A DNA stretch of 49,005 bases from Gammaproteobacteria bacterium (GTDB taxonomy: Bacteria > Pseudomonadota > Gammaproteobacteria > JBBQDK01). The position numbers and the translations under genes were made by a program. This document shows, one piece after another, positions 18,168-49,005 of this stretch (the stretch's first letter is position 1; the number at the start of each line of letters is the position of its first letter). The stretch is from the NCBI GenBank assembly GCA_041492115.1, contig JBGPWJ010000001.1:1-49005 (forward strand), written 5' to 3'. The notes below the pieces were generated by a model. The model ran no database searches, had not been told where the DNA came from, and saw only the letters and a program-made list of their open reading frames with translations.

Positions 18168-18179
18168 TATAAGTAGACG

Positions 18180-18268: not shown

Positions 18269-18316
18269 GTCGAAGCGTTGCAGGTCTAGTTAACAGCACC
18301 GCCATTAACATGTTCA

Positions 18317-18847: not shown

Positions 18848-18856
18848 AGTTTGTCG

Positions 18857-21446: not shown

Positions 21447-21480
21447 ATCGATCTCTGATGCTCAAACAAATTAAAAATAC

Positions 21481-21504
21481 TCTCTCCCCGGAGGGGAGGG
21501 GGGG
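21481..21504. repeat. REP-like hairpin, copy 4, in the ccmC-ccmD spacer
   Basis: The sequence tctctccccggaggggaggggggg abuts the ccmC stop codon. Confidence 0.5.
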
Positions 21505-22269: not shown

Positions 22270-22367
22270 GTCTGTAATGGCACATGTACCACATGGTAAA
22301 TACGATTAGTAGCCTGGGTTAAGCTTGCGGCTGTGGCCTGCGGCGCGCTTTGCGCTTTATCAATATT

Positions 22368-23045: not shown

Positions 23046-23047
23046 GA

Positions 23048-23781: not shown

Positions 23782-24540
23782 TCAGGCCGGCACTGCTTCC
23801 GCGTATTCCTTTAGCGCTTTTTCACTGTACTCGAAACGGCCATCGTCGCGATGCCGCAGAATCCCTTGACGTTTCAAGTCCGCCAAGATCCGACTGACGC
23901 TCTCCGCAGTGATGTCCAGCATGGCCGCGATATCCTCGCCCTTCAGCAGCACGACTCTGGATTTACGCTCATCATCGGTGATCTCGGACAGCCAGCAGAT
24001 CAGGTGAGCGACACGTTGTTTCACATTGCCTGACAGCACCATCATGATGTAATCGTCGGTCTGGAACAGCGCGGAAGCCCAACGTTCCATCAACTGACGG
24101 TAGAAACGCGGCTTCTCCATATCCAGTTGCCGCAGCACGCCGATCGGGATGCGGCAGGCATTGACCGGTTGCAGGGCGATCGCCGTGTGGCCATAGGGAC
24201 GTCCGAGCACGCGTTCAAGGCCGATCGAATCAGCGGTCTTCATGAGACGGATGATCCGCTCTCTGCCATCGGGCAGATAGCGCACCAGTTTCACCAGGCC
24301 GCTGCGGATGGTGTAGATGGCGTTATCGTCACTGCCCTGCTGGTAGATGACCGAGCCCTTCTCGTAGCTGAATTCATCGATGGGCTCGTAAATACCCTGG
24401 ATGATGTGGTTGAGATCGCCTGAAGACAGGTCGCTGAACAGTACTTCGTGCAGGATATTGCAGGTGCGGCACACCGACCGTCCGACCCAGGTCGGATAGC
24501 ACATGCATGGGCTGTGATTCTTCATGTTCATAACAAGCAT
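23782..24540 (-). CDS. CRP/FNR-family transcriptional regulator with N-terminal Cys cluster (CxC-x9-CxxC)
   Basis: The N-terminus HSPCMCYPTWVGRSVCRTCNI carries the Cys cluster. A cNMP-binding-like beta-roll (IYQQGSDDNAIYTIRSGLVKL) follows. The C-terminal HTH carries the FNR-type E--SR recognition motif (ITAESVSRIL). Confidence 0.85.
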   Translation of the reverse strand: MLVMNMKNHSPCMCYPTWVGRSVCRTCNILHEVLFSDLSSGDLNHIIQGIYEPIDEFSYEKGSVIYQQGSDDNAIYTIRSGLVKLVRYLPDGRERIIRLMKTADSIGLERVLGRPYGHTAIALQPVNACRIPIGVLRQLDMEKPRFYRQLMERWASALFQTDDYIMMVLSGNVKQRVAHLICWLSEITDDERKSRVVLLKGEDIAAMLDITAESVSRILADLKRQGILRHRDDGRFEYSEKALKEYAEAVPA

Positions 24541-28272: not shown

Positions 28273-28290
28273 GTTTCACCCCTCGCGTTA

Positions 28291-28656
28291 TTAATCATAA
28301 TTGCAACCCGGATAAGAAAACCCGTATTTAAAAACATTTAAAAAAACAGCGGCCCTCATGAGGCGGTTGATCAGCGCTCTGCCATCGGGCAGATGGCGCG
28401 CCAGTTTCACCAGGCCGCTGCGGACGGTGTAGATGGCGTTATCATCACAGCCATGCTGGTAGATGACCGCACCCTTCTCGTAGCTGAGTTCATCGATGGG
28501 CGCGTAAATACCCTGGATGATATGGTCCAACTCGCCTGGAGACCGATCGCTGAACAGTACTTCGTGAAGGATGTTGGAGGTGCGGCATACCGACCGTCCA
28601 ACCCAGGTCGGATAGCACATGCATGGACTATGATTCTTCTGGTTTATCACAAGCAT
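28291..28656 (-). pseudogene. Truncated duplicate of the FNR-like regulator (N-terminal ~103 aa only)
   Basis: MLVINQKNHSPCMCYPTWVGRSVCRTSNILHEVLFSD... parallels the gene at 23782-24540 until homology stops at about 28347. The frame then reads into unrelated sequence. The fourth Cys is replaced (CRTC becomes CRTS). No HTH is present. Confidence 0.7.
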
Positions 28657-28790
28657 CCACTTTGCTGATTAGATTCGCCTGGCCGCTCTTAGCGTTGACC
28701 ATGCCTGCAAGCCTCTTTAGTCAGTTTAATGAGATCAAATTTTTGCCTTGCCGTAATTGCGTATTATCAATATCAAAAAAAAGAAGCGAT
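28347..28790. repeat. Segmental duplication, copy B
   Basis: This is the counterpart of 24231-24698. Together the two copies bracket the ComEA-like and OmcA/MtrC-like genes. Confidence 0.8.
28757..28770. promoter_or_regulatory. FNR-box-like site TTGCG-TATT-ATCAA in the duplicated promoter
   Basis: This is the same half-conserved box as at 24672-24685. It now lies upstream of the pseudo-fnr and decaheme gene pair. Confidence 0.35.
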
Positions 28791-28974
28791 GAAGGAACAT
28801 ATGGAATGATTCAGCGCGTAGCGCGATGTACGACGCTGGAATTGTGTTTTGTCAAAGAGAGCAGCGATGAAGGAGTGCTTTGAGCAATTCTGCGCGAAGC
28901 GCATAGAGCAAGGTATGACGGCTCCCGCGTAGCCGGAGGGCCGGATGTTTTATCGGAGTTCACGCGAAAGCGCG
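28781..28974. repeat. Imperfect direct repeats (78-bp spacing, third partial copy) in a noncoding spacer
   Basis: GCGATGAAGGA occurs at 28786 and 28864. TTC-N-GCGCG-N-AGCGC occurs at 28810 and 28888, and in degenerate form at 28959. Confidence 0.45.
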
Positions 28975-29148
28975 GGTGGATACAAAATATAAAGGCAACC
29001 GGTCCGGCGTCAGTCAGTGTGGGAACTGTGGCGCGGTGCGCAAGATGTCGCGGGCGCCGAAGGCATAAAACTGCCGCCAACTTCTCGCTCCCGAGGGAGC
29101 TAGGGATATCCCGTCGGGTTTCGCGAAAAATGGCGGCACCGTGCCGTG

Positions 29149-29775
29149 TTATTCAGATTCCGCGTAATCCTTCGGCAGTTTATGGCCAATGCCCTTGTGG
29201 CAATCGATGCAGGTTTCCCCCGATGCCTGCTGGTGTTCGAGCGTGTGCTTCTTGCGCGCGCTCTTATCCTGCAGTTCGGTATTCATCGATTCAAAGGAAT
29301 GGCAGTTGCGGCATTCCCGTGAATCGGTTTTTTTCATCTTGGCCCAGACATCCTTGGCAAGACTGAGGCGTACTGCTGTGAACTTTTCCTTGGTGTTAAG
29401 GGTGCCCATCAACCATATAGGTAATTCATTCAGCGTGGCCGCAATCTTGGCTTTCATTTTCGGTAAAAAAACTTTTGGGACGTGACAATCGGAACAGATG
29501 GCCCGCACACCGCTGGCATTCTTGTAATGCACGCTTTCCTGGTATTCAGCGAACATGTTGTCTTTCATTTCATGACAGGAATTTGCGCAGAACTCCAGAC
29601 TATTGGTGTAATGCAGTACCTCCTCGAAGCCGGCCCAAATGGCACTGCCAATAAATAACGCCAGGAATCCGCCGAGCGGTACGCCCACCATCCACCAGAC
29701 TTTGGATCTGCGCCATACGAAATGCCTGTGGGAATCAGGGTCGTGACTTTCTTTTGGATCGGACATGCACAGCAC
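29149..29775 (-). CDS. NapC/NirT-family membrane-anchored tetraheme cytochrome c (CymA-like quinol dehydrogenase)
   Basis: The N-terminal TM is VWWMVGVPLGGFLALFIGSAIWAGF. The four CXXCH motifs are CANSCH-context CHEM, CSDCH, CRNCH and CIDCH. Confidence 0.9.
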   Translation of the reverse strand: MLCMSDPKESHDPDSHRHFVWRRSKVWWMVGVPLGGFLALFIGSAIWAGFEEVLHYTNSLEFCANSCHEMKDNMFAEYQESVHYKNASGVRAICSDCHVPKVFLPKMKAKIAATLNELPIWLMGTLNTKEKFTAVRLSLAKDVWAKMKKTDSRECRNCHSFESMNTELQDKSARKKHTLEHQQASGETCIDCHKGIGHKLPKDYAESE

Positions 29776-29839
29776 CTCTCGTTAAGCCGTTAGACAAGCG
29801 CGAGCCTTCGCGCCACCTGGAATCGCCATTTCATCCGTA

Positions 29840-30472
29840 TTATTGGAAGCTTCCGAAATAGTTGATGAGGTCGTCGATATCCGTTTTTTGCAGCTTCTCG
29901 AGTTTAGGCTGCATTTTTTTCGGGACGGGACGCTTGTTGGAAGTGAACTCATCAAACGTGTGCTGGATATACGGCATCCACTGTCCGGCCAGAATGCCGG
30001 CATCGTCATCCGGCGAGCTGCCGCCGTTGTCATGGCATTTCTTGCAGTTGGCGTCATGCAGTATCTTGCCGCGCTTGGCCTTGTCCGCATCGAAAGTCTG
30101 TTTTGCGCGGACGAACGGTTTGGAGGATAAATAACCCGCGATGAGTTTCATATCTTCATCCGACAGATCCTTGGTGACCTTGCACATATCCATGGGTTCG
30201 CCTTTGTGTGGGCCGGCGTTGAACTTCACCTCAGGACATGGCCGGTCCTTGTTCTTGTAGTTCTTAAGACTGTCGGTTAGGTAGGCCGCCGAATAACCGC
30301 CGATGATCGGCACATCCGAGGTGGTACTGGCGCCGTCCTTGCCGTGGCAGTCGGCGCAGGTTTCAACTAATTTGTTTACGTCGGCGGCGTCTGCGCTGCT
30401 GACGATGGTTAAACTGCACAGTGCGGTTCCAGCCAACAGCATTGCATATGCGGTGGTCATTTTCGTCTTCAC
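29840..30472 (-). CDS. Periplasmic diheme class-I-type cytochrome c
   Basis: The signal peptide is MKTKMTTAYAMLLAGTALCSLTIVSSADA. The two CXXCH motifs are CADCH and CKKCH. The stop lies 64 nt upstream of the CymA-like gene on the same strand. Confidence 0.85.
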   Translation of the reverse strand: MKTKMTTAYAMLLAGTALCSLTIVSSADAADVNKLVETCADCHGKDGASTTSDVPIIGGYSAAYLTDSLKNYKNKDRPCPEVKFNAGPHKGEPMDMCKVTKDLSDEDMKLIAGYLSSKPFVRAKQTFDADKAKRGKILHDANCKKCHDNGGSSPDDDAGILAGQWMPYIQHTFDEFTSNKRPVPKKMQPKLEKLQKTDIDDLINYFGSFQ

Positions 30473-30656
30473 GTACTGCCCTCCAATTTAAGCGTCGGAA
30501 TCTACGGTTACCCGGCAAGCGCACACATGTCTCAACTCGGCGCTGCGTCGTACCTGGCCCTTAACCTCAGGGATTGCGCGGGTATACTGAGCAACTGCTC
30601 GCAGCAACCAGCGATCTGCTGGATTATCGTATAGCAGACTCCGGCGCGACCTTACA

Positions 30657-30670
30657 TTGACAATTATCAA
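30657..30670. promoter_or_regulatory. FNR/CRP-type box TTGAC-AATT-ATCAA
   Basis: The site matches the TTGAT-N4-ATCAA consensus at 9 of 10 positions. It lies in the divergent promoter region between the diheme/CymA-like operon and mtrCAB. Confidence 0.55.
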
Positions 30671-30755
30671 ACATGAAAGACTCAAGACTGCATATTGATT
30701 ATTTTCTGCACCAAGCAGAACGGCCATTCACTCATCATTCTTGATTTCTCTTCTA

Positions 30756-30769
30756 TTGATTATTGTCAA
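30756..30769. promoter_or_regulatory. FNR/CRP-type box TTGAT-TATT-GTCAA
   Basis: The site matches the consensus at 9 of 10 positions and ends 90 bp upstream of the mtrC-like ATG at 30859. Confidence 0.55.
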
Positions 30770-30858
30770 CGAATCATCAGGCGCGCTATGGCATATGTAG
30801 GCCAAGGTTTTCAGGCATGCAGTATTCTGCAGGTCAACATCCATACAGGAGACGTGCT

Positions 30859-33483
30859 ATGTTCCGGTCTTGCGTAGATTTTCAGTGGGTCAAGCGCATC
30901 CTTGTAGCCGGCGTGATCTCGGTCGCCCTGGGTGGATGTGGTGGCGGGGGTGGCGGGGGCGGTGGCGGCGCGGGCGTGCCGCCCGGCAGCGGCGGCACAG
31001 GTGACGGCGGAACGCCCACATCCAAGCCCTTCCCGAAACCGCCGGCGACGGCGCTCAATATGACGATCAACAGCGTCACCCTCCCACCTAACAGCAGTAG
31101 CCCGCCTGTCCTGGCCGTTGTGCAGTTCACCGTCACGAATGAGAAAGGCGAACGCTTCACAGGGCTGCTCCCCGCTGACCTGCGCTTTAACATCGCCAAG
31201 CTGACACCGGGTACCGGCGGCAATCCGAGCAGGTGGCAGAACTATGTCAACTCCACCCGGCAGAACACAGCGAAAACCGTAACGGCGATGCGAGGGAATG
31301 TGGAAACACCCAAGCTCTACGCACTGGATGGTTCGCCAGACGTAGCAACGGCGGGCACGCTGGTCGATCACGGTGACGGCACCTATACCTACACTTATTA
31401 CACCGATCTCAGCGACGTCTCCGTGACTTGCCCTGCACCGTGCGTGGACGCGCAGGGTAATGCGTTGGATACCACCTATGACCCAACCTTGACGCACCGC
31501 GTCGGCATTTATACCCGCAGCCCTTTGCCGACGGTGAACGGGATCAAAGACGTCAGGCCGTCGGATGGCGCCACCAGCAATCTGTTCTCGCGCGAAATCG
31601 TCACCACGGCGAAGTGCAACGAGTGCCACAACAAGCTCAACGTTCACGGCGGGCGCATCGATACCCAATTGTGCGCCACCTGCCACAACCCGGGTTCCTG
31701 GGAAGCCAACACCGGCAATACCGTGGATTTCAAGGTCTACATCCATAAAATCCATCGCGGGACAAGTCTGCCAAGCACCGTTGCCGGTACGCCCTATATG
31801 ATCGGGACAGACGATTTCTCGGATGTAGTCTTTCCGCAGGAAATCCGCAATTGCACGAAATGCCATGATGGCACCGTTGGCGCGCTGAACGCGACCGCCG
31901 AGGGCGACAACTGGAAAACCGGTCTGAGCCGGGCAGCCTGCGGCTCGTGCCATGACAATATTAATTTCTTAGTGAGCGGGCAAGCGACTTACACGGCCAC
32001 CCCGATAGCCCAACGGACCGGCCACTCGGGCGGTGTCATGACGGACGACTCTCAGTGCAGCACTTGCCACGTAGTGGGTGGGTTTGCCGGTAGCGTCGCG
32101 GCAGTTCATAACAACACCGAGGCGGGTGTGTTCATGGCCAAAGTGCAAAGGGCTAAGTTCCAATTCAATATCATTGAAATCTGCGGCACAGCCGTTGCTG
32201 CAAATCCAGTGTGCGCACCGGGCGTGACACCGACGGTGAAATTCTCGGTGACCGATCCGACGGGTGCGACAACGCACGGTCATGGCAACGCCTACAAGCT
32301 CTTTCCCGATGCCAGTGCTGCCGATCCCGAGTTCTGGGACACGGGTACGGCCAAGGCGGTCGGCAGCATGAGCGTTGACATCGCCTGGGATACGCGCGAC
32401 TACAACAACACGGGTGGCTATGCCGCGCGTCCGGCCCGCGCCAACCAGGTCAATGTCTTTGGCGCCGCCGCCGCGACCAACTACGGCTTCGCGTCGGTCC
32501 AACTCCCGCTCTATCCCAAGGCTACGGACAATGGGGATGGCACATATACCGTCACAGCACTGGGACCGATCCCGGACGGTACCGTGTTCCCGAATGTTGC
32601 CGCCACGGGCAGTGGCGCGGTCGCGATAGAAGGCCGCGCAACCGCGGATCCGCTCAGCACCATTCCTGCCACGACCGCCAGGCTTCGGATACCGATCAAG
32701 GGCGAAGTCGCCTACTTCCGCATCACCGATACCACGCCGGTAGCGCGTCGGGTTGCGGTGGACGCCATCACCAAGTGCGACAACTGTCACGATCAGCTGA
32801 GCCTGCACGGCGGCAGCCGTAATGACAATGTCCAGCTCTGCGTTCTCTGCCACAACCCGAACAATACCGACGCGCCCGCGAGTGCACGCATCAAGTTCGC
32901 CAATGGCCTGTCGACCGGCGTGGCGGCCGCCGGCAAGCCGGATGACGGCAAGAAGGAGGAGGCCATCGACTTCAAGCGCATGATTCACGGCATCCATGCC
33001 GGTGGGGCCACCTCGCTGGACGGCAGCACGACCCTAAACGGTTTCCGCACCAAGGGCATCATGGTCAGCGGCACCGACTTCAGCGATGTGCGCTTCCCGG
33101 GCATCCTCAATGACTGCACCACCTGCCACAACACCGGCACATATGAGTTGAAGGGGATCTGGGAAACGCCGACGCAAAATCATATCCTGGCGAGCACTGT
33201 CGACTCGACGCCAGGCCTGACATCGTCGAACACGTCCACCGAAGTCAATAACGCGCTGAAAAATCCGGGGGATGACTATAACATCTCGCCGATTGCGGCG
33301 GTGTGCTCGTCCTGCCATGACAGCGATGTGCAGAAGAGTCACATGCGGGACCAGGGCGCGTTATTTGGCGACGATCTTGGCAACTCCATACAGAGCCTGA
33401 TACCGGACGTCGGTGAGAGCTGCCCGGTATGCCACGGTCCTAACACTCTCTTGGATGTGAAGGTCGTCCATAATGTGCCGTAA
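30859..33483 (+). CDS. mtrC: OmcA/MtrC-family decaheme c-type cytochrome lipoprotein
   Basis: I set the start at MFRSCVDFQWVKRILVAGVISVALGGC (RBS AGGAG, 7 nt before the ATG). The lipobox Cys27 is followed by ten Gly. The ten CXXCH motifs are arranged 5+5: CNECH, CATCH, CTKCH, CGSCH, CSTCH / CDNCH, CVLCH, CTTCH, CSSCH, CPVCH. It sits first in an mtrC-A-B gene order. Confidence 0.9.
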   Translation: MFRSCVDFQWVKRILVAGVISVALGGCGGGGGGGGGGAGVPPGSGGTGDGGTPTSKPFPKPPATALNMTINSVTLPPNSSSPPVLAVVQFTVTNEKGERFTGLLPADLRFNIAKLTPGTGGNPSRWQNYVNSTRQNTAKTVTAMRGNVETPKLYALDGSPDVATAGTLVDHGDGTYTYTYYTDLSDVSVTCPAPCVDAQGNALDTTYDPTLTHRVGIYTRSPLPTVNGIKDVRPSDGATSNLFSREIVTTAKCNECHNKLNVHGGRIDTQLCATCHNPGSWEANTGNTVDFKVYIHKIHRGTSLPSTVAGTPYMIGTDDFSDVVFPQEIRNCTKCHDGTVGALNATAEGDNWKTGLSRAACGSCHDNINFLVSGQATYTATPIAQRTGHSGGVMTDDSQCSTCHVVGGFAGSVAAVHNNTEAGVFMAKVQRAKFQFNIIEICGTAVAANPVCAPGVTPTVKFSVTDPTGATTHGHGNAYKLFPDASAADPEFWDTGTAKAVGSMSVDIAWDTRDYNNTGGYAARPARANQVNVFGAAAATNYGFASVQLPLYPKATDNGDGTYTVTALGPIPDGTVFPNVAATGSGAVAIEGRATADPLSTIPATTARLRIPIKGEVAYFRITDTTPVARRVAVDAITKCDNCHDQLSLHGGSRNDNVQLCVLCHNPNNTDAPASARIKFANGLSTGVAAAGKPDDGKKEEAIDFKRMIHGIHAGGATSLDGSTTLNGFRTKGIMVSGTDFSDVRFPGILNDCTTCHNTGTYELKGIWETPTQNHILASTVDSTPGLTSSNTSTEVNNALKNPGDDYNISPIAAVCSSCHDSDVQKSHMRDQGALFGDDLGNSIQSLIPDVGESCPVCHGPNTLLDVKVVHNVP

Positions 33484-33671
33484 GTCTGCTCACTGAAAGA
33501 GTCTGGGGGCCGCGTGTCGGCTCCCCAGGCGGGAAGGTCATAACAGTGCCGGCCCTCTGAGCAATGCAGGCGGCGGCGACCGATGGACGAATCGACTGCC
33601 GGCAGCCCGCGGCGGTGGCCTCGCAATGAAGAACGGTTACCAAAGGCAACTTAACCACATTGGCTGACGAC

Positions 33672-34649
33672 ATGAATGACAAACACACACCGATGTATGC
33701 ATTGCTCTTCCTGCTGTGTTTCTTAGTGGGTGTTGCAGCCCGAGCCGAGGCGCCAGCCGCAGCCAGTCAGACATCGGCAACCGAGGATGCCAATAAAGCA
33801 TCGGCCTATACGGAAAAAGGCGCCGACACCTGTCTCAAATGTCACGATGAGGATTCGGAGTTCCCGGTCTTCGACATCTTCAAGACCAAACACGCGCAGC
33901 CGGCGGACAAGCGCTCGCCTTTTGCCGGCCTGCAGTGCGAAGCCTGTCATGGGCCCGGTGCCAATCATGCCAAGCAGGTCCCAAAAGGTCATAAACAAGC
34001 GCCAATTATCAAATACGGCGCCAAATCCTGGGTCTCCACCGAAAAGCAGAACCAGGTCTGTCTCGGCTGTCATGAGAACCAGAATCGCATTACCTGGAAG
34101 GGCGGCGCGCACAGCAACGGCGATGTCGCCTGTGTCAGTTGCCACAAGATCCACACCCCGCATGATCAGATTCTGAGTACCACCGAACAGCCGGATGTCT
34201 GCTACAAATGCCATAAGCAGCAGCGCGCTGACTTCATGAAACCGTCCACCCATCCGGTGCGTGCCGGGCAGATGGCTTGCAGCGACTGCCACAAGGTGCA
34301 CGGTGCGGTCACAGCCAATCTGCTGATCAAACCGACGCTCAACGAAACCTGTTATACCTGTCATGCCGAAAAGCGCGGACCGTTCCTGTGGGAGCATGCT
34401 CCGGTGGCCGAAGATTGCAGCAACTGTCACACAGTGCATGGCTCGATTCATCCGTCATTGCTTACCAAACGGGCGCCGCTGCTTTGTCAGCAGTGCCATT
34501 CGCAGGCCGGTCATCCGAGCACCGAGCATGGTCCTGGAGATTTACCCAGCGGCACTCCATCAGGCTTCCTACTGTCGGGCGCCTGTCTCAACTGCCATTC
34601 GCAAGTTCACGGGTCGAACCATCCTTCCGGTGTGAAACTGATGCGCTGA
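33672..34649 (+). CDS. mtrA: MtrA/DmsE-family periplasmic decaheme c-type cytochrome
   Basis: The protein has a signal peptide (YALLFLLCFLVGVAARAEA) and ten CXXCH motifs in about 300 aa. The family-typical C-terminus is CLNCHSQVHGSNHPSG. I prefer the ATG at 33672 over the TTG at 33660. Confidence 0.92.
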   Translation: MNDKHTPMYALLFLLCFLVGVAARAEAPAAASQTSATEDANKASAYTEKGADTCLKCHDEDSEFPVFDIFKTKHAQPADKRSPFAGLQCEACHGPGANHAKQVPKGHKQAPIIKYGAKSWVSTEKQNQVCLGCHENQNRITWKGGAHSNGDVACVSCHKIHTPHDQILSTTEQPDVCYKCHKQQRADFMKPSTHPVRAGQMACSDCHKVHGAVTANLLIKPTLNETCYTCHAEKRGPFLWEHAPVAEDCSNCHTVHGSIHPSLLTKRAPLLCQQCHSQAGHPSTEHGPGDLPSGTPSGFLLSGACLNCHSQVHGSNHPSGVKLMR

Positions 34650-34731
34650 CGGGCGGCAGCGGGTATGCGGCGAGCCGGAGCCGCGCGCAGACGACAGAGA
34701 CACAGAGTGGGATGTCACAGAGGCTACGACG

Positions 34732-36816
34732 ATGAACCGAAATACGACGATGAAGACTGCCAATGGTCTGGCCCTGATCGTGCTCGCGACGCTTGCCTTG
34801 TGCCTGCCGGCACCGGCCAGAGCGGATGACCAGACCGCGGCCGCGCCGGGCACTTCCAAGTGGAAATGCAAGTTCTGCCTGTTCGAGGAAGGACGCAGCG
34901 GCCTACTGGATCTCGGTGTCGGCTCTGTCTCAAACAATTCTTTCAAATTCGACGAATACGCCGGTTTCAATCAACTGGGCCACTTCCTGGTCGGTAACGC
35001 GACCGGTCGTTATCGCGGTAAAGACGCGGCCTATCTGGATCTTTCCGTGACCGACCTTGGGCTGGATTCACGCATCCTGGGCATCGAAGGCGGCAAGCAG
35101 GGCAGATACAAACTGTTTCTGAAATACGCTGAGCTGCCGCATAACATCTCCGACACGGCGCAGACGCCTTTCAGTGGCGCAGGCAGTTCTACCTTGACCT
35201 ATACCGGCGTGCTGCAAGGCGTGGATCTCGACACGCAACGCAAGCGCATTGACCTGGGCGGGTCACTGATTCCTGTTACGCACTGGGAGTATGCCGTCAA
35301 GTTTCGACACGAGACCAAGGATGGCCAGCGCGGTATGGCCGGCACTTTCTTCTTCAGCGCGGCGCAACTGATCCAGCCGGTGGATTACGTCACCGATGAG
35401 GTCGATGTCTCCGCGGCGTACAGCGCCTCGAAATGGCAGGCCAAGTTGGCGTACTACGGCTCGACATTCAAAAACAGCGACGCGTCTCTGACTTGGCAGA
35501 ATCCCTATCTTCCGCCGGACACGCTCCCTGACAAAGGACAGCTCGCGCTGCCGCCCAGCAATCAGTTTCACCAGATCGTGCTCTCGTCCGGCTATCAGTT
35601 CACCGACCGGACCCGTGCCATGGGCGAAGTCGCCATCGGCCGCATGACGCAGGACGAGGCATTTCTTCCCGTCACGACCAATACCAATCTCCCGGCTATC
35701 ACCTTGCCGCGCGCCTCATTGAATGGTCAGGTCGACACCGTAAACGCCAACTTCAAGGTCGTCTCAGCCCCCATCGATAAACTCCGGCTCAATGCGGCTT
35801 ACACCTACAGTGACAGAAACAACAAGACGCCGCAGTCGGCGTACGAGTGGGTGACGACCGATATCTTCCCGCGCCCGGCACGCACCAATCAGCCGTACAG
35901 CTTCACGCGCAACCTGCTCAATCTGAGCGCGGATTACCGTCTCCCGAAGTATGCGAAGCTCGGCGCCGGTTATGACTATGACACCTACAAACGGAATCTG
36001 CAGGATTTCAACAAGACCACAGAGAACACCCTTTGGGGGAAAGTCAGCACTACCGTTGGCGAGAATGTGGATATGATGCTCAAGGCCGCCCACGCTTCAC
36101 GCAATGTCTCGGACTACCAACCCAATCCCGAGATCGATCCTGCGCAGAATCCGCTGATGCGCAAATACAATATGGCGGACCGCGACCGTAACACGGTGGG
36201 CTTTCATGCCGGCATCACACCGCTGCAGCGGCTCAACATCGGCGTTGGCGTCGATTATGCCTGGGATAACTATTCGAAGTCGCTGGTCGGGTTGTTGGAC
36301 GGCGTACAAAGTGATCTGAGCGGTGATGCATCACTGATACTGACAGAAAAAACCAGCCTGACGCTCTTTGCCAATCATGAGATGATCAAGTCGAGCCAGG
36401 GCGGTAGCCAGGCCGTCCTCACCATACAGGATTGGTCTGCACGGAACCGCGACACGACCGATACCGCCGGTCTCGGCGTCAAGTACCGCGCCAACGCGAA
36501 ACTGGATATCGGCGCCGATTATTCCGCCTCGCGCTCCACCGGGCGGATCTCAGTCAGAGACTTTTCCCTGGCTCAGGCTGACCAGCCATTCCCCGATCTC
36601 ACCACGAAACTCGACACCGTGAAGATCTACGGCACCTATCGTCTGAAACCGGCGGTAGCTTTGCACGCGGCCTATTGGTATGAACGCTACAACAGCACTG
36701 ACTGGACCCTCGATGGCATTACACCCTTCACTATTCCCAATGTCATCACCCTGGGCCAGCTCAGCCCTTCGTATCACGTCAACGTGGTGACCCTGTCGGT
36801 GCGGTATAGCTTCTGA
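34732..36816 (+). CDS. mtrB: MtrB/PioB-family decaheme-associated outer-membrane beta-barrel
   Basis: The protein has a signal peptide and an N-terminal CXXC (KWKCKFCLFEE). A beta-barrel of about 650 aa ends in VVTLSVRYSF. The gene lies immediately downstream of mtrA. Confidence 0.9.
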   Translation: MNRNTTMKTANGLALIVLATLALCLPAPARADDQTAAAPGTSKWKCKFCLFEEGRSGLLDLGVGSVSNNSFKFDEYAGFNQLGHFLVGNATGRYRGKDAAYLDLSVTDLGLDSRILGIEGGKQGRYKLFLKYAELPHNISDTAQTPFSGAGSSTLTYTGVLQGVDLDTQRKRIDLGGSLIPVTHWEYAVKFRHETKDGQRGMAGTFFFSAAQLIQPVDYVTDEVDVSAAYSASKWQAKLAYYGSTFKNSDASLTWQNPYLPPDTLPDKGQLALPPSNQFHQIVLSSGYQFTDRTRAMGEVAIGRMTQDEAFLPVTTNTNLPAITLPRASLNGQVDTVNANFKVVSAPIDKLRLNAAYTYSDRNNKTPQSAYEWVTTDIFPRPARTNQPYSFTRNLLNLSADYRLPKYAKLGAGYDYDTYKRNLQDFNKTTENTLWGKVSTTVGENVDMMLKAAHASRNVSDYQPNPEIDPAQNPLMRKYNMADRDRNTVGFHAGITPLQRLNIGVGVDYAWDNYSKSLVGLLDGVQSDLSGDASLILTEKTSLTLFANHEMIKSSQGGSQAVLTIQDWSARNRDTTDTAGLGVKYRANAKLDIGADYSASRSTGRISVRDFSLAQADQPFPDLTTKLDTVKIYGTYRLKPAVALHAAYWYERYNSTDWTLDGITPFTIPNVITLGQLSPSYHVNVVTLSVRYSF

Positions 36817-36917: not shown

Positions 36918-37736
36918 TTATATTTCCTGCAACGAATAACTGTAGCGAGAATCGGTGAGCGGATCAGCGGCTGCATCTTCGTTGTGCGTTTGCCGGGGCC
37001 GCGCCGCGCCACCGACGCCGTTCGGGGGCGCGAGGTGCAGAGGACTGCCGGCCAGCATCTGCAACTGGTTGCGATCGCGGATATGGATGCCGCCGCGCGG
37101 TGCGTCGATGATGCCGTCACGCTGCAATCTGGCCATGATACGGCTGACCGTTTCCACGGTGAGCCCCAGCACCTCCGCTATTTCACTCCGCGACAGGTGC
37201 AGTGGCAGGAGCTCCTCCAGCATATCATCGGTTCTTTTTGGCGCGAGACTCAACAGAAAGGAGGCAAGTTTCTCGATGGAACTTTTCTGTCCCAGCACGC
37301 GTATCAGACTGCGTGCCTGAACCAGTTGTTCATTCATCGCCTGCAACACGTTCAGCGATACTTTTGGATTTTCAGCCAGAACCTGCATCATGTCTCGATG
37401 CTTGATTCTGCACACCACGGTCGGCGTGAGACATTCCGCCGTATAGCTGTGGACAGCATCGCCGATGTTGTCGAAGCCCAGCAGGTAACCGGCGCCGACC
37501 AGCCCGATGATATGCTCGTTGCCATCGATACCCGATGTGGTCAGTTTGATCTGACCACTGCGGATCATGAACAGATACTGTGACGGTTCGCTGGAACGAA
37601 ACAGCACATCATGCGCGTCGCTGACGTGCCGACTGAGCATGCCGCGGATCTCACACACCTGCCCTTCGGTAAGGCCCGCGTAGAGTTTCGCCTCGCAGAA
37701 CAGGCACTCTTCGTTATGGCATGAACAGACACTCAT
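36918..37736 (-). CDS. CRP/FNR-family transcriptional regulator with N-terminal Cys cluster (CxC-x4-CxxC)
   Basis: The N-terminus is MSVCSCHNEECLFCEAKLY. It is followed by a cNMP-like beta-roll and an HTH with the E--SR motif (LTVETVSRIM). Confidence 0.85.
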   Translation of the reverse strand: MSVCSCHNEECLFCEAKLYAGLTEGQVCEIRGMLSRHVSDAHDVLFRSSEPSQYLFMIRSGQIKLTTSGIDGNEHIIGLVGAGYLLGFDNIGDAVHSYTAECLTPTVVCRIKHRDMMQVLAENPKVSLNVLQAMNEQLVQARSLIRVLGQKSSIEKLASFLLSLAPKRTDDMLEELLPLHLSRSEIAEVLGLTVETVSRIMARLQRDGIIDAPRGGIHIRDRNQLQMLAGSPLHLAPPNGVGGAARPRQTHNEDAAADPLTDSRYSYSLQEI

Positions 37737-42896: not shown

Positions 42897-45191
42897 TCAA
42901 CGCACCGCCGGCGTCGGCACGCCGGGTGGGATCACGTCGTTGGTGCGGAACGCCGCGTCGATGGCGAAGTTGAGATCACTTATCACTTGGCCGCCTTTGT
43001 TGACGTTGGCGAGGAAGCAGCGCAGTTCGAACAATAACGAGGCGTCGACGAAACTCAGGAACAGGACGGCGGGTTCGAGGCCGGGGTCCTTGAGCACCAT
43101 GGGGTGCGCGTGCGCGACCTCGAGCAGCAGTCGCTTGATGACTGCGGGATCATTGCCCGTGAAGGCGACCTTGACCGGCACGTGGATGCGGCCGTGTTTG
43201 TCGGCCAACGTCCAGTTGGTGACCCGGCCGGAGATCAGTTCCGAGTTGGGCACGATCACGTCGGCGTGATCGAAGGTCTGGATCCGCGTGGAGCGGATGC
43301 TGATGCGTTTCACGTAACCTTCGGTGTCGCCCACCACAATCCAGTCGCCGGTTTTGATCGGCCGCTCGAACAGCAGGATCAGGCCCGATACGAAATTGTT
43401 GACGATGTTCTGCAGGCCGAAGCCGATGCCCACCGACAGGGCGCCGGCGAGGATGGCGAGATTGGAAAACTCCATGCCGGCGATGCTCAGTGCTACCAGC
43501 ACGGCAATGGCGGCGCCGGTGTAGCCGGTGATGGTGACCAGCGCTTCGCGCGCGCTGCGTTCCATGTTGGTGCCTTGCAGCCAGTTGCGCTCCAACTGTC
43601 CCTTGAACCAACCACTGAAACCCAGCAGTAGCGTGAGGATGAGCGCGGCCAGTGCGATGCGTCCCGGCACGATGTGCAGCGATCCCACCGCGACGCCTTC
43701 CAGCAGATAGCCGTGCAATTGCTGGAAGCCGAGATCGGACAGGCCCCAGGTCCAGAGCACGCCCAGCAGGCAGGCGCTGACTATCGCCAGTGTCGTGAGC
43801 GGACGCAGCCAGGCCAGACCGGGCACGCTGTCGCCGGGTTTGATGCCGAGCGCGCCGCGCAGACGTTGCTGCCAGCGATGCGTGCCGCTGTCGAGGCCGT
43901 CATAGAATTCGCGCAGCAGACGCGACAACAGCATGGCGAGGCCGAGCAGCAGCAGGGTGCCGAACAGTCCGCGCAAGCTTGCTTGCGACAGATTGCGATA
44001 CCCCAGCCATTCCGCCGCGACGTTGAATAACAACGCCAGTTCAATACTGCGCCGCGGCCAGCGCACGGTGTTGAAGTAAGGCACATGCCCGAGCAGCCAC
44101 AGCGCCCACACCAGATTGAGTGCGAACACTACGATGAACACGGCGCGCAGCAGCAGCAGCGCCGGTTCGGGCAGGGCCTGTTCGAGCACAGTGGCGAACA
44201 GCAGGTAGCCGACGTAGAGCAGCAAGGCCAGCAGGCCGAGCCGGCGCATCAGCGCCTTGGCGATCGGTTCCGACAGCGCCAAACATACGCTGGTGGTGCC
44301 GGTGACGATGAACAGGCGGAACAGACACAGTAGCAGGATATAGATCGGCAGGCCGTAGGCGGCCAGATTGAGCAGCGGCAGTTCCGGTTGTGTGTGTCCG
44401 GCGGCGTAGAAGAAGGCCGCGATCAGCAGACTCGGCAGCAATGCCGGCAGGTAACGCACCAGCACTTGTGCGGCGGCGCGGTTCAGCGTGCTTCCAGGCG
44501 CGCTGTCCGCCGCGCTGTCCGGTCTGTTGCGGCGCAGCCGGCGACACAATGCCAGGCCGACTCCGAGGCCGAGCAGCGCCAGCCCGAGGAGAGACAAAAT
44601 GTCGTCCCTGCTGAGCTGTTCCATGCCGCTGCGTGTGCGAAGGTAGTCGTGGCTGGCAGCGATCCAGTCGGGTGCCTGCTGGAGATTTTCGCGCAGCAGG
44701 TTATTGACGCTGGGTCCGCGTGCCAACAATCGGTTGGTCAGCAATTGCTGTTGCAGTGTGCCGGCCTTTTTCAGCAGATCATCGCTGCGTAGAATCAGCA
44801 AATGACAAGTCGAGAGTAATTTTTCAGCATCGGCCTTGTTGGTGTTGAGGTCAGTCCGTGCGCGCGTCACATCGCGCGCTTCGCCGGGCAACGCGGCGCC
44901 CAGGGTTTGCATCTTTTGTAGCGTCTCGGCGAGCCTACCCTGAGTGTCGACGATGCAATCGCGGGCATGATCACGCAGTGCGCCCGCCTGCCGCAGCCAA
45001 GTGGTGTTGAGCGTGCTGTCCGTCGTGCCTTGCTTGAGTCCCTGTTCTATGGTGTCGAGCGTCTGGTCCATGGCCTTGGCATCGTCCACCGTGGCCGGTG
45101 TCTGGGCGGACAGCGCGACAGCGTGCAGCGCCAGCAGCAGCGCGAACAGCATCCGACGCACGAAGAGAAGACAGGGTCGTGTGTGCATCAT
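42897..45191 (-). CDS. Mechanosensitive channel, MscK/KefA-like (large MscS family)
   Basis: The protein has a signal peptide, a long periplasmic helical domain and multiple TM helices. The MscS core is GFGLQNIVNNFVSGLILLFERPIKTGDWIVVGDTEGYVKRISIRSTRI. Confidence 0.9.
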   Translation of the reverse strand: MMHTRPCLLFVRRMLFALLLALHAVALSAQTPATVDDAKAMDQTLDTIEQGLKQGTTDSTLNTTWLRQAGALRDHARDCIVDTQGRLAETLQKMQTLGAALPGEARDVTRARTDLNTNKADAEKLLSTCHLLILRSDDLLKKAGTLQQQLLTNRLLARGPSVNNLLRENLQQAPDWIAASHDYLRTRSGMEQLSRDDILSLLGLALLGLGVGLALCRRLRRNRPDSAADSAPGSTLNRAAAQVLVRYLPALLPSLLIAAFFYAAGHTQPELPLLNLAAYGLPIYILLLCLFRLFIVTGTTSVCLALSEPIAKALMRRLGLLALLLYVGYLLFATVLEQALPEPALLLLRAVFIVVFALNLVWALWLLGHVPYFNTVRWPRRSIELALLFNVAAEWLGYRNLSQASLRGLFGTLLLLGLAMLLSRLLREFYDGLDSGTHRWQQRLRGALGIKPGDSVPGLAWLRPLTTLAIVSACLLGVLWTWGLSDLGFQQLHGYLLEGVAVGSLHIVPGRIALAALILTLLLGFSGWFKGQLERNWLQGTNMERSAREALVTITGYTGAAIAVLVALSIAGMEFSNLAILAGALSVGIGFGLQNIVNNFVSGLILLFERPIKTGDWIVVGDTEGYVKRISIRSTRIQTFDHADVIVPNSELISGRVTNWTLADKHGRIHVPVKVAFTGNDPAVIKRLLLEVAHAHPMVLKDPGLEPAVLFLSFVDASLLFELRCFLANVNKGGQVISDLNFAIDAAFRTNDVIPPGVPTPAVR

Positions 45192-46204
45192 TGCCAGGCG
45201 TTACCGAGTGCGGCGGTGCGGGTTTTGTGGTGCAGGGTGAGCAGGCTGAGCAGCAGCAGGGCGGCCAGGGCGTTGTGCGCGGTGGCGAGCACGATGGGAA
45301 TACTGGTGAGCACGGCGCTGATGCCGATCAGGATTTCGGTGAGCAGCAACAGGAATACGGTGATGCCGCTGTCGCGGTAGATGCCGCCGGCACGGATCGC
45401 CAGGGCCGCGGTCCAGCCGAGGATCAGGAATGTCATCCAGGCGCCGAGGCGGTGCGCGCTGTGGATGGCTTGGGCCTCGTCGCCGCCGCTGACCACACCG
45501 GCCGCGTTCACCGGCAACACGCGCAGGATATCGAAGGCCGTGGTGATGGCCGGGCCCGGCAGCCAGGAGCCGTGACAATCCGGGAAGCTGGTGCAGGCGA
45601 GCGCAGCGAAATTGGCGCTGGTCAGACTGCCGAGCAGGATCTGTGCGCTCAGTACCAGCAGGCCCACGCTGATCCAGGTGTGCAGCGTGCGCGGCGTGGC
45701 GTAGCCGCCGCCGGTGTATCTGCGCGTGCGCAACCACAATAACCAGAGCAGCACCAGCATGCCGAAGCCGCCGATCAGATTACCCAGCACCACGGCCGGC
45801 CGGTGCAGATCGCCGGACCAGTTGCCGAGCACGGCGAGGAATACCGTGAGAGCCAGCAGCAGCAACGGTATCAGTACCGGAGCGCCTTTGCGGTGGCGCG
45901 CCAGGGATGCGACTGTCAGGGCGATGATGCCGATGCCGAGCAGGCTGGCGATAAAGCGGTGCGCGGCAGTTGCCCAGCCCTGCGGTGCGTGCTTTTCATT
46001 GACCAGTTGCTGGTAGGCTGAGACGGTGTCCGCCGTCGAGTGGCCGGCGGGATGCGCGGCAATTGTGCCGATCCGGCCGTAGCAGGCCGGCCACTCGGCG
46101 CAGCCCAGGCCGGCGTGATTGAAGCGGATGTAGGCGCTCAGCACTACCAGGGCGGCGACCAGCGCCAGACACACGATCACGAGTGATTGCAGAGTCCGGT
46201 TCAC
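45188..46204 (-). CDS. ctaA: Heme A synthase (COX15/CtaA)
   Basis: The N-terminal motif is AYIRFNHAGLGCAEWPACYG. The protein is polytopic with paired His-containing helices. Its stop forms an ATGA overlap with the downstream MscK-like start. Confidence 0.85.
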   Translation of the reverse strand: MNRTLQSLVIVCLALVAALVVLSAYIRFNHAGLGCAEWPACYGRIGTIAAHPAGHSTADTVSAYQQLVNEKHAPQGWATAAHRFIASLLGIGIIALTVASLARHRKGAPVLIPLLLLALTVFLAVLGNWSGDLHRPAVVLGNLIGGFGMLVLLWLLWLRTRRYTGGGYATPRTLHTWISVGLLVLSAQILLGSLTSANFAALACTSFPDCHGSWLPGPAITTAFDILRVLPVNAAGVVSGGDEAQAIHSAHRLGAWMTFLILGWTAALAIRAGGIYRDSGITVFLLLLTEILIGISAVLTSIPIVLATAHNALAALLLLSLLTLHHKTRTAALGNAWQ

Positions 46205-46323: not shown

Positions 46324-47019
46324 CTAATCATCCGGGTCCTTGACCTGAATCGCAAGTGTTCCGCGCACCAGGCGCAGGTATTTGGGGGTTTTCTTCCAGT
46401 CGACGCGGTCATAGCCGTAATCGAAACTCCAGGCCCAGGCGCCGGCGTAATGCGACCCGTAGGCGACGCCGGTCCAATACTGCGCCGCGTGTATGTCAGG
46501 GAAAAACCGCGTGTCGATCGTGGGACCGGGGTAGGTGATGCGCGGATCGTTGATGGTGGACAGTTCCTTTTGTGTTGGCAGGCGCCAGTCATGGGTGCCG
46601 CACAGGCTCTGGACATTCACGGCTTCGACATAGGCCGTGGTGTCGCAGGCGCTGCCGCTGCATTTGCCGCCATTGCGCATGCCGGCATTGCCGGCGTTGT
46701 GCTGTTTGTCGGGGTTGTACCAGGTGTAGGTATTGTCCTTGCTGCGCAGGCCGGCCTGCGTCGTTTTCACTTCCCAGATGAGGCCGGTGTGGCGATCAGT
46801 GACGCAGCTCCACGGTTGTGTCGCGAAGTCACCGTTGCCGGTGTAGGGCGCGCCATCGACGTTGAGGCGTTGAAAATCGAATGCCGGTGTCTGCGCGTTG
46901 TGGCCGGTGCCGCGACCGCAGGCGGTGAGCGTTATTACGCTGCACAGTGCGAGGCAATATAGGGCGCTTCGAACGCTACGTGTTGTGATCATGGTGTTGC
47001 TCCGTCTGAATGCCCGCAC
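46324..47019 (-). CDS. DUF1566 (Lcl C-terminal domain) lipoprotein
   Basis: The lipobox is LTAC, and the motif HDWRLPTQKEL is typical of DUF1566. Confidence 0.8.
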   Translation of the reverse strand: MRAFRRSNTMITTRSVRSALYCLALCSVITLTACGRGTGHNAQTPAFDFQRLNVDGAPYTGNGDFATQPWSCVTDRHTGLIWEVKTTQAGLRSKDNTYTWYNPDKQHNAGNAGMRNGGKCSGSACDTTAYVEAVNVQSLCGTHDWRLPTQKELSTINDPRITYPGPTIDTRFFPDIHAAQYWTGVAYGSHYAGAWAWSFDYGYDRVDWKKTPKYLRLVRGTLAIQVKDPDD

Positions 47020-47119
47020 GAAGCGAACAGGGTAGGGCGAGTATTACGCGCTGATCAAGCCGCAAGTGCATCAGCAGTGGCTAATGTACTGCATCATATC
47101 CGCAAAGAGTTTCCCCAGC

Positions 47120-47133
47120 TTGATTTATATCAA
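47120..47133. promoter_or_regulatory. Perfect consensus FNR/ANR/DNR box TTGAT-TTAT-ATCAA
   Basis: The site matches the consensus at 10 of 10 positions. It is centred about 76 bp upstream of the ATG at 47203, the first gene of the oxidase-like operon. Confidence 0.65.
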
Positions 47134-47202
47134 GTCGCAGACCATGGCAAATACAGTACAACTGCGTCACTGCGCACAACTGACGTTATATCGAGGTGAG
47201 CC

Positions 47203-47361
47203 ATGGCCGACCAGAGCAATCCGAACGAAGCCGATATTCCGGTAATGCAGAAGGTACTCGACAATCCCTTCCTGTTGCTGTTCCTGGGCGTGGTGATGCC
47301 CACGGTGTTCTACATTCTCTGGGGTGTGATGGAGATCGTCACCATCCCGATGGCCAAATAA
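47203..47361 (+). CDS. Small single-TM protein (52 aa), possible accessory subunit of the downstream heme-copper enzyme
   Basis: An RBS (GAGGTGAG) precedes the start. The product is MADQSNPNEADIPVMQKVLDNPFLLLFLGVVMPTVFYILWGVMEIVTIPMAK. The stop lies 16 nt before the subunit II start. The ORF is below the ORF-track size cutoff. Confidence 0.55.
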   Translation: MADQSNPNEADIPVMQKVLDNPFLLLFLGVVMPTVFYILWGVMEIVTIPMAK

Positions 47362-47377
47362 GACTGAGGAAACGCCC

Positions 47378-47941
47378 ATGAGCGCTATAGAACCGCCCGC
47401 GCAACGCATCTGGTGGAATCAACCTATCGATCGCGTCGAAGGTACCTGGATCGCGATCGCGCTGATCTGGTGTCTGATTCTGTTTGCCATGATGCCGTAC
47501 TGGCATGTGTACGGGAAACAGAATCTGTCCAACGAGGCCTACCGCACCACGCCCGAGGCCTATGCGGCCAAGGCCGAGGCCATGATCGCCAAGTACAAGG
47601 TGCGCACCCACGAGCAATCGGGGATGCCGGTCGTGCACCCGCCGGCGGGCAGCGATGTGTATCTGATCGCGCGCTTCTATCAGTGGTATCCGCTGCTTGA
47701 ATTCGAGCAGGGCAAGAGTTACCGCGTGCACCTGTCATCGATGGATTACCAGCACGGCTTCTCGCTGCAGCCGCTCAACATCAACATGCAGGTCATCCCC
47801 GGCTACGAGACCGTGGTCACACTCACGCCCGACTCGTCCGGTGAATTCACCATCGTGTGCAACGAATACTGCGGCATCGGTCACCACACCATGCTCGGTA
47901 AGATCTTCGTCGTCAAGTCAGGAGCGGACCATGGCAAATAA
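47378..47941 (+). CDS. Heme-copper oxidase-superfamily subunit II with CuA site (B-family/ba3-like)
   Basis: The protein has one TM helix followed by a cupredoxin domain. The CuA ligands are present: YQHGFS and CNEYCGIGHHTM. Confidence 0.9.
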   Translation: MSAIEPPAQRIWWNQPIDRVEGTWIAIALIWCLILFAMMPYWHVYGKQNLSNEAYRTTPEAYAAKAEAMIAKYKVRTHEQSGMPVVHPPAGSDVYLIARFYQWYPLLEFEQGKSYRVHLSSMDYQHGFSLQPLNINMQVIPGYETVVTLTPDSSGEFTIVCNEYCGIGHHTMLGKIFVVKSGADHGK

Positions 47942-49005
47942 CGAACTTTACAGAGTCTGTCCCCGCACCGGTCTGCAATACCACAAACCGGCGGAACTGC
48001 TGATGAAGGCCAACGCGGTCGCCGCAGTGGTCATCCTGCTGATCGGTGGTGTGCTGGCGCTGCTGGTAACCCTGACGCGCTGGCCGGCGGTGCATCTGCT
48101 GCCCGCCGACGGTTTCTATCAGGCGCTGACCGCGCACGGCCTCGACATGCTGATCTTCTGGATCATCTTCTTCGAAATCGCAATACTCTATTTCACGTCG
48201 AGTACGATATTGCGCTGCCGGCTGGCCACGCCGCGCATCGCCTGGCTGGGCTTCGCGCTGATGATCATCGGCGTGGCGACCGTCAACATCGCCATCCTGG
48301 GCGGCGATTCCAGTGTGATGATGACATCGTATGTGCCGATGCCGGCCAATCCGAAGTTCTATCTTGGGTTGATCCTGTTCGCGGTCGGCGCGTTGCTCGG
48401 TTGTTTTATTTTCCTCGGCACGCTGGTGATCGCCAAGGCGGAGCGTACCTATGAAGGTTCGATCCCGCTGGTGACCTTCGGCGCCTTGACGGCCTGCATC
48501 ATCGCCATCTTCACCATCGCTTCGGGCGCCATCATCCTGATTCCGACTTTCCTCTGGTCGATCGGTTATGTCAGCCATATTGATCCGCTGATGTACCGCG
48601 TAATCTGGTGGGCGATGGGTCACTCTTCGCAGCAGATCAACGTCGCGGCGCATGTCTCGGTGTGGTACGCGATCGCGGCGATCGTGTTCGGCGCCAAGCC
48701 GATGTCCGAGCGTGTCAGTCGCGGCGCCTTCCTGCTCTACATCCTGTTTCTGCAGTTGGCTTCGGCGCATCACATCCTGGTCGATCCCGGCATCAGTTCC
48801 GAGTGGAAGATCTTCAACACCAGCTATGCGATGTACCTCGCGGTGCTGGCGAGCATGATCCACGGCCTGACTGTGCCGGGCTCCATCGAGGTCGCACAGC
48901 GCGGCAAGGGCTTCAACAAGGGCCTGTTCGAGTGGATCCGCAAAGCACCCTGGGGCAATCCGGTGTTCTCCGGCATGTTCATGTCGCTGATCGGATTTGG
49001 CTTCA
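47931..49005 (+). CDS. Heme-copper oxidase-superfamily subunit I, B-family-like, atypical active site (3' end cut by window edge)
   Basis: The gene is not in the ORF track because no stop occurs before the window end. The frame is open from the ATG at 47931 (RBS AGGAGC, 11-nt overlap with subunit II). The product begins MANNELYRVCPRTGLQYHKPAELLMKANAV.... Recognisable motifs are TAHGLDMLIFW (low-spin heme His), WWAMGHSSQQINV (CuB His, with Gln at the position of the cross-link Tyr) and LASAHHILVD (the HH pair). Confidence 0.9.
   Translation, partial: MANNELYRVCPRTGLQYHKPAELLMKANAVAAVVILLIGGVLALLVTLTRWPAVHLLPADGFYQALTAHGLDMLIFWIIFFEIAILYFTSSTILRCRLATPRIAWLGFALMIIGVATVNIAILGGDSSVMMTSYVPMPANPKFYLGLILFAVGALLGCFIFLGTLVIAKAERTYEGSIPLVTFGALTACIIAIFTIASGAIILIPTFLWSIGYVSHIDPLMYRVIWWAMGHSSQQINVAAHVSVWYAIAAIVFGAKPMSERVSRGAFLLYILFLQLASAHHILVDPGISSEWKIFNTSYAMYLAVLASMIHGLTVPGSIEVAQRGKGFNKGLFEWIRKAPWGNPVFSGMFMSLIGFGF

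Follow-up and report, generated by a model that had tools for sequence, protein, structure and literature searches.

A very probable eNOR-type nitric oxide reductase operon: promoter and first three genes from a gammaproteobacterial metagenome-assembled genome

Introduction

The nitric oxide (NO) reductases called eNOR form a family that has been named since 2008 (Hemp & Gennis 2008) and that was characterized biochemically in 2024 (Murali et al., PMC11214002). These enzymes derive from the B family of heme-copper oxygen reductases, carry a CuA subunit and have a K-channel-like path, including a Ser equivalent to S309 of the ba3 oxidase (PMC11214002). Their diagnostic feature is a Gln at the position of the cross-link Tyr (Gln-323 of the published alignment; PMC8756737, section 2.7.1, Table A4); the same position holds Glu in cNOR and qNOR, Asn in sNOR and Tyr in O2 reductases (PMC8756737). 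The eNOR purified from R. marinus DSM 4252 reduced NO at 0.68 per s (25 °C) and did not reduce O2 with several donors; it holds a modified heme a (As) at both heme sites, and the M. magnetotacticum enzyme is known spectrally (PMC11214002). The order eNOR II, eNOR I, heme o synthase, sco1 is very common in eNOR operons (Ferrigenium straubiae preprint, bioRxiv 10.64898/2026.01.22.701106), many of which include ctaA (PMC11214002). Here, we describe the start of an operon, with its promoter and three leading genes, that very probably encodes an eNOR-type NO reductase. It lies at the end of a stretch of 49,005 nucleotides (contig JBGPWJ010000001.1, assembly GCA_041492115.1; hereafter, the window) from a gammaproteobacterium known only as a metagenome-assembled genome (MAG).

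A preliminary description of this DNA, made from the sequence alone, had proposed a non-canonical NO reductase that contains CuA and descends from a B-type oxidase. Judged by its sequence features, the enzyme fits eNOR exactly. The novelty it implied does not hold, because eNOR had already been named and characterized; the window operon adds no new family. What we add is modest, namely a conserved FNR-type box and a conserved small open reading frame (ORF).

Subunit I and its relatives

Three closely packed genes occupy the plus strand from position 47203 to the end of the window: a small ORF, the gene for subunit II and the gene for subunit I. The subunit I gene (47931..49005, COX1 family) overlaps the end of the subunit II gene by 11 nt and continues past the window end, so that the window holds codons 1 to 358 of 568. 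Translation of 47931-49004 gives the 358-amino-acid N-terminal part, which matches Pfam PF00115 (E 3e-41). The full-length sequence, which the preliminary description had called for, is available as a public protein of 568 amino acids (P0001) encoded on two short contigs (L001 and L002), one of them from assembly GCA_041491105.1. The part in the window is 100% identical to P0001 and to L001.

The active-site residues listed in the preliminary description are all present at the positions given there. The low-spin heme ligand H69 sits in the motif LTAHG, the first metal (CuB) His is H231 (codon 48621-48623), and H280/H281 (codons 48768-48773) form the HH pair. Gln235 (codon 48633-48635), within WWAMGHSSQQ, comes four residues after H231. 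A HMMER alignment to subunit I of the T. thermophilus ba3 oxidase (E ~5e-46) places H231 on H233, Q235 on Y237 and H280/H281 on H282/H283. Two further ligands, H385 and H387 in VPGHFH, lie past the window end; they were read from P0001 and match H384 and H386 of ba3. All the heme axial His residues (H69, H385 and H387) and all the metal His residues (H231, H280 and H281) are invariant in the alignment. The best Protein Data Bank (PDB) matches to subunit I are ba3 and other B-type enzymes (~1e-46), with A-type enzymes reaching only ~1e-7; no eNOR structure is among these matches, the best of which are to ba3 only.

A scan of GTDB genomes gave 80 loci with subunit I genes 71 to 85% identical to that of the window. 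These loci are mostly from Gamma- and Betaproteobacteria and include four from cultured strains, whose operons are 72 to 79% identical: Noviherbaspirillum sp. ST 5-3 (L022), Elongatibacter sediminis CH-27 (L031), Piscinibacter caeni MQ-18 (L056) and Curvibacter sp. PAE-UM (L059). Together with two loci that carry the window's own sequence, they make up the 82 fetched loci, and GH[S/A/P]SQQ, LTxHG and VPGHFH are present in 82/82 of the translated subunit I sequences.

A wider search, a full HMMER run on 1.84 billion cluster representatives, extended the Gln-type group to P0121 (55% identity), whose relatives are MAGs labeled Deltaproteobacteria, and to P0129 (41% identity; motif GHGTQQ) from the haloarchaeon Natrarchaeobius. 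The next full-length relatives, at 34 to 44% alignment identity, have GHxxQY and thus keep the Tyr; those that are named are archaeal (Hodarchaeales and Thermoproteota). In a neighbor-joining tree, the Gln-type sequences, P0129 among them, form one clade that excludes 17 Tyr-type B-family sequences. This clade is sister to archaeal Tyr-type enzymes and distant from canonical ba3-like sequences. We also considered whether the gene might be a pseudogene or relic and rejected this, given more than 8000 close homologs, the invariant active-site residues and the intact operon.

Comparison of the two groups showed six positions that are invariant in the Gln-type clade and differ in the Tyr-type sequences: S233 (ba3 I235), Q235 (Y237), Q275 (T277), N296 (H298), Y299 (V300) and E370 (F369). 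Proton-channel residues, left for later checking by the preliminary description, are retained in the sequence alignment, where the K-channel equivalents are S308 (ba3 S309), Y246 (Y248), S259 (S261) and T314 (T315); S308 and Y246 are invariant in both groups.

Two side observations arose among the subunit I homologs. Three distant heme-copper oxidase homologs (P0184, P0189 and P0202; 31 to 33% identity, one from a Dehalococcoidia MAG) carry FH[VI][NY]HY in helix VI, with FLYH where the HH pair would otherwise be, an unusual active-site pattern. Separately, locus L047 (JBLHGQ010000126.1) is binned as Rhodothermales. Its bin assignment is probably wrong, because its subunit I is identical to a protein labeled Lysobacterales by NCBI and a homolog search from it returned proteobacterial relatives only.

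Subunit II, the small ORF and operon content

The subunit II gene (47378..47941, plus strand; Pfam COX2) encodes 187 amino acids with one transmembrane helix and a CuA cupredoxin domain. The protein aligns to the CuA domain of ba3 (E ~1e-15), and ba3 subunit II CuA is its best PDB match. All the CuA ligands (H, C, C, H and M) align, the first being the H of YQHGF and the others lying in C-NEY-C-GIG-H-HT-M, which bears out the complete CuA site reported in the preliminary description.

The first gene of the operon (47203..47361, plus strand) is a conserved ORF for a single-helix membrane protein of 52 amino acids, which the preliminary description had counted but left undescribed. By tblastn, a homolog lies directly upstream of subunit II in 79/82 fetched loci, with 50 to 88% identity among the relatives. 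In all of these loci but one, 9 to 67 nt separate it from where the subunit II match begins. The motif P..Q..LDNPF.LLF.G...P...Y..WG is conserved. Differences from the window copy at codon positions 1, 2 and 3 number 1165/566/2039, the pattern expected of a protein under purifying selection. The small ORF has no match in Pfam, NCBIfam or the PDB, where a search to E 10 gave one chance match only.

The operon of the ba3 oxidase likewise starts with a small single-helix subunit (IIa, gene cbaD). Because subunit II of the window has a single transmembrane helix, as in the B family, and the ba3 operon has this small first subunit, we suggest by analogy that the 52-amino-acid protein is probably a third subunit, positionally like ba3 subunit IIa. 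No PDB match links the two proteins, so the analogy is one of gene position and topology, not of homology. We found no mention of a 52-amino-acid upstream ORF in the eNOR literature covered.

Downstream of subunit I, as read from L001 and L002, the operon goes on with heme o synthase (UbiA family; TIGR01473, 258 bits, above the cut-off) and an SCO1/SenC copper chaperone. The gene order on L001 thus matches the usual eNOR operon of the preprint (bioRxiv 10.64898/2026.01.22.701106), and most of the 80 related loci have the same layout. In related loci (L004, 9652-13692; L022, 9428-13021), three more genes follow sco1: a cytochrome b/4Fe-4S/FlpD fusion, a COX1-like paralog of 450 to 480 amino acids and, third, in L004, a cytochrome c. 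The paralog keeps the heme His residues and the first metal His (GHVLQF), but its HH pair is missing, which leaves no way to bind CuB/FeB. This paralog probably corresponds to the "eNOR scaffold protein" of the F. straubiae preprint (bioRxiv 10.64898/2026.01.22.701106). Both the window and L001 end before the region where this gene would lie.

The FNR-type box and candidate promoter

An exact FNR/CRP-family box, TTGATTTATATCAA (TTGAT-N4-ATCAA), occupies positions 47120..47133 in the 183-bp divergent intergenic region upstream of the operon. It is the sole exact match in the window, where shuffled sequences lead one to expect 0.05. Its center lies 76 bp from the small-ORF ATG at 47203, as the preliminary description had it, and 107 bp from the start of the divergent Lcl_C gene described below.

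The box is conserved among relatives. Counting only the 75 related loci with enough upstream sequence, 39/75 have a box with at most one mismatch within 300 bp upstream of the small ORF, against 0.39 expected from shuffled upstream regions. Box density is 1.83 per kb upstream of the small ORF versus 0.06 per kb elsewhere in the same loci, a difference of about 30-fold, and most boxes lie 86 to 134 bp from the start of the small-ORF match, which we took as the gene start. When seven upstream regions were aligned (49% mean identity), the only conserved blocks were CTTGAT-N4-ATCAA, a TAnnnT element and the start codon. An FNR box upstream of eNOR has been reported before only indirectly, by way of an Accumulibacter enzyme annotated as ba3 (PMC6446978).

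The TAnnnT element, about 20 to 25 nt downstream of the box, contributes a candidate -10 region, TACAGT or TACAAC (47152..47162, plus strand; 19 to 24 nt downstream of the box in the window). This candidate comes from the comparative alignment only, in which A47153 and T47157 are invariant columns. The box center is 25.5 or 30.5 nt from the hexamer, depending on the hexamer chosen, and the predicted spacing roughly resembles the geometry of a class II FNR-activated promoter. A sigma-70 consensus scan of 46900-47420 found no full promoter, as would be expected for an activator-dependent promoter lacking a -35 element. Between the box and the first start codon there is also an inverted repeat, CAACTGCGTCACTGCGCACAACTG (plus strand, 47159-47182), which a scan called as a terminator-like site on the minus strand and which could form a hairpin in the 5' leader.

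The window encodes two candidate regulators for the box. The product of 36918..37736 (minus strand) is an FNR-type regulator whose best NCBIfam match is Fnr, at 111 bits and below the cut-off; it has N-terminal Cys residues C4, C6, C11 and C14, one further Cys in its central part, and VETVSR (E--SR) as its recognition helix. The second, also of the Crp/Fnr family (23782..24540, minus strand), combines cNMP_binding and HTH_Crp_2 domains with N-terminal Cys residues and an AESVSR helix.

Neighboring genes

Heme A synthase (CtaA/COX15; 45188..46204, minus strand; PF02628, E 5.6e-43) is divergent from the operon and 999 bp from its first ATG, in keeping with the 1 kb given in the preliminary description. 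Many related loci also have a ctaA homolog on that side. The gene that separates ctaA from the operon encodes an Lcl_C/DUF1566 lipoprotein (46324..47019, minus strand; PF07603, E 4e-26), with a homolog similarly placed in about 28 related gammaproteobacterial loci. An MscK-like channel gene is also among the divergent upstream genes.

Further upstream, the window carries an Mtr/OmcA-type extracellular electron transfer cluster (25285-36816). It comprises two MtrC/OmcA-like multiheme proteins (30763-33483, plus strand, and 25285-28272, minus strand), an MtrA-like decaheme protein (33660-34649), an MtrB/PioB porin (34732-36816; E 2e-172), a NapC/NirT/CymA-like protein (29149-29775, minus strand) and a diheme cytochrome c (29840-30472, minus strand). 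The intergenic region immediately upstream of the MtrC/OmcA-like gene holds two FNR-like boxes with one mismatch each, TTGACAATTATCAA (30657-30670) and TTGATTATTGTCAA (30756-30769). These are the window's only other near-matches, which suggests one regulator for the Mtr cluster and the eNOR operon.

A complete System I cytochrome c maturation cluster (16375-23716, minus strand; ccmA, B, C, E, F, a G-like redoxin, H and I/CycH) adjoins the Crp/Fnr regulator gene at 23782-24540. Other features of the window are a truncated ORF with a cNMP-binding domain only (28291-28656), two proteins that bear VPLPA-CTERM/PEP-CTERM sorting signals (8441-9190 and 9636-10355) and, at 12864-14780 on the minus strand, a large protein of ankyrin and Sel1 repeats.

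Discussion

Taken as an eNOR, the enzyme would work as follows. A periplasmic carrier would donate electrons to CuA in subunit II, from which they would move to the low-spin heme (H69/H387) and on to a binuclear site made up of a high-spin heme (H385) and a non-heme metal, presumably copper or iron, held by H231, H280 and H281. This site would perform the reaction 2 NO + 2 H+ + 2 e- -> N2O + H2O; a two-electron reaction is proposed because Gln235 replaces the His-Tyr cofactor that is required for four-electron reduction of O2. The K-like path (Y246, S259, S308 and T314) would probably deliver protons taken up from the cytoplasm, in which case the reaction would be electrogenic. The 52-amino-acid protein would probably act as a third subunit, and heme o synthase, the divergently encoded CtaA and SCO1 would supply heme a-type cofactors and copper. 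An FNR-type regulator at the box would probably couple expression to low O2. Because CtaA depends on O2, microoxic denitrification is a setting that suits the system, in line with the argument of Murali et al. (PMC11214002). In this scheme, the chemistry, the heme type and the absence of O2 reduction come from the literature; our analysis supplies the sequence features, the placement in the family and the evidence that the box and small ORF are conserved.

Some points weigh against the assignment of this operon to a respiratory eNOR expressed at low O2. Membership in the family is judged from diagnostic residues, operon content and a neighbor-joining tree that holds no labeled reference eNOR, and the NO chemistry proposed for the window enzyme and its close relatives is carried over from the characterized family member. 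The remaining such points concern regulation, genomic context and one Tyr residue, and each favors a different alternative.

The alternative that fares best concerns regulation. The box might serve the divergent Lcl_C and ctaA genes, or might repress the eNOR operon instead of activating it. It does sit in a shared intergenic region, 107 bp from the Lcl_C start and 76 bp from that of the small ORF. In addition, genes of Ca. Accumulibacter with FNR motifs, annotated as ba3 oxidase and heme A synthesis, fall in an expression cluster with higher expression at high O2 (PMC6446978). Many Accumulibacter strains have eNOR, for the expression of which Murali et al. cite that study (PMC11214002); from this citation, we take the "ba3" enzyme to be eNOR, and if it is, the box may repress. 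On the other side, the box stays at a roughly constant distance (86 to 134 bp) from the small-ORF start in most relatives, among them loci without Lcl_C or ctaA on that side, and the conserved TAnnnT element follows the box on the eNOR strand, with a geometry near that of a class II activated promoter. We regard a different target or a repressing box as rather unlikely.

A second alternative concerns physiology. An eNOR homolog could serve in NO detoxification or act on another substrate, for example as an electron sink for the neighboring Mtr-type system, rather than in respiratory denitrification. No nir, nos or nar genes lie within the 49-kb window, and the large MtrCAB/OmcA-like cluster has its two near-consensus FNR boxes; detoxification and other roles for eNOR are discussed in the literature (PMC8756737; F. 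straubiae preprint, bioRxiv 10.64898/2026.01.22.701106). However, no activity other than NO reduction has been demonstrated for the eNOR family, and a 49-kb window without nir is little guide to the genome as a whole. We find this alternative improbable; as the same reaction would be catalyzed in either role, it bears on physiology and not on mechanism. Somewhat less improbable, and still doubtful, is a more ambitious version of the eNOR assignment, in which the eNOR of this proteobacterial clade would have three subunits, including the undescribed 52-amino-acid protein, and would be co-regulated through FNR-type boxes with the Mtr/OmcA conduit, NO reduction being the energy-conserving end of microoxic, iron-coupled electron transfer in a gammaproteobacterium.

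The third alternative is that the enzyme is still an O2 reductase, that is, a B-family variant that draws its Tyr from another helix or works without one. Its overall architecture is of the ba3 type (CuA, K-channel residues and heme a biosynthesis genes), the protein is annotated as a cytochrome c oxidase in databases, and Y299, a helix VIII Tyr near the level of the binuclear center, is invariant and specific to the Gln-type clade. In C-family oxidases, helix VII supplies the Tyr, which precedes the HH pair by six residues (Y251 and H257/H258 in P. stutzeri cbb3). The preliminary description had raised such a Tyr as the thing to look for; at the equivalent position, subunit I has Leu274, the nearest Tyr on the helix of the HH pair being Y270, at -10. 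Moreover, the database annotation is a mere Pfam-level label, the models of these families by Murali et al. show no migrated Tyr, and the purified R. marinus enzyme does not reduce O2 with any of several donors (PMC11214002), so we give this alternative very little credence beside NO reduction by an eNOR.

The annotation itself has consequences. Genes for eNOR are still annotated as cytochrome c oxidase subunit I or even cbb3-type oxidase, and all the named matches of three homolog searches bear such labels; where an eNOR is mislabeled as an oxidase in this way, the genome is scored as lacking an NO reductase, and its contribution of N2O is missed. The operon described here adds one uncultured gammaproteobacterium, which also has an Mtr-type metal-redox conduit, to the likely N2O producers. 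It leaves knowledge of the eNOR family itself unchanged. For work on eNOR regulation and subunit composition, the FNR-type box and the small ORF, both conserved, offer practical handles.

Comparison with known systems

The canonical NO reductases cNOR and qNOR (NorB) share with the window enzyme the superfamily and the proposed reaction. Unlike the window enzyme, they have a Glu as fourth FeB ligand and take electrons from cytochrome c (NorC) or quinol, not from CuA, and they have no cytoplasmic proton channel (PMC11214002). We rejected assignment to cNOR, qNOR or nNOR because subunit I has Gln and not the helix VI Glu, its partner is a CuA protein and not the cytochrome c of cNOR, and the ligands of its low-spin heme are His/His and not the His/Met of nNOR. 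The sNOR/bNOR, gNOR and nNOR families are alike in being B-family relatives without the active-site Tyr. Of these, sNOR/bNOR was rejected because the Tyr position holds Gln235 and not Asn, and gNOR, whose cupredoxin subunit lacks CuA ligands, because all three metal ligands are His, none being Asp, and all the CuA ligands are kept.

The closest solved structure is the ba3 oxidase of T. thermophilus (PDB 1EHK and 1XME; ~28% identity), which has the same heme and CuB His residues, CuA domain and K path. Its operon order, cbaDBA, resembles the window order of small ORF, subunit II and subunit I. The window enzyme differs from ba3 in Gln-type invariant residues (Y237 to Gln235, I235 to Ser, T277 to Gln, V300 to Tyr and F369 to Glu) and also at T312 (His) and Y244 (Val). 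Assignment to the B-family O2 reductases was rejected because the Tyr of HPxVY, four residues after the first CuB His, is Gln235, and a C-family-style migration of the Tyr because of Leu274.

Among characterized eNORs, the R. marinus enzyme can be compared with that of the window by its published description; the window member differs in its source, an uncultured gammaproteobacterium. For the "cytochrome a1-like" hemoprotein of M. magnetotacticum, a search of open papers found none with sequence data. With the eNOR family as described, the window operon shares the Gln in place of Tyr, the three metal His residues, the CuA subunit II, the K-channel-like residues, the genes for heme o synthase and SCO1, and a ctaA gene nearby.

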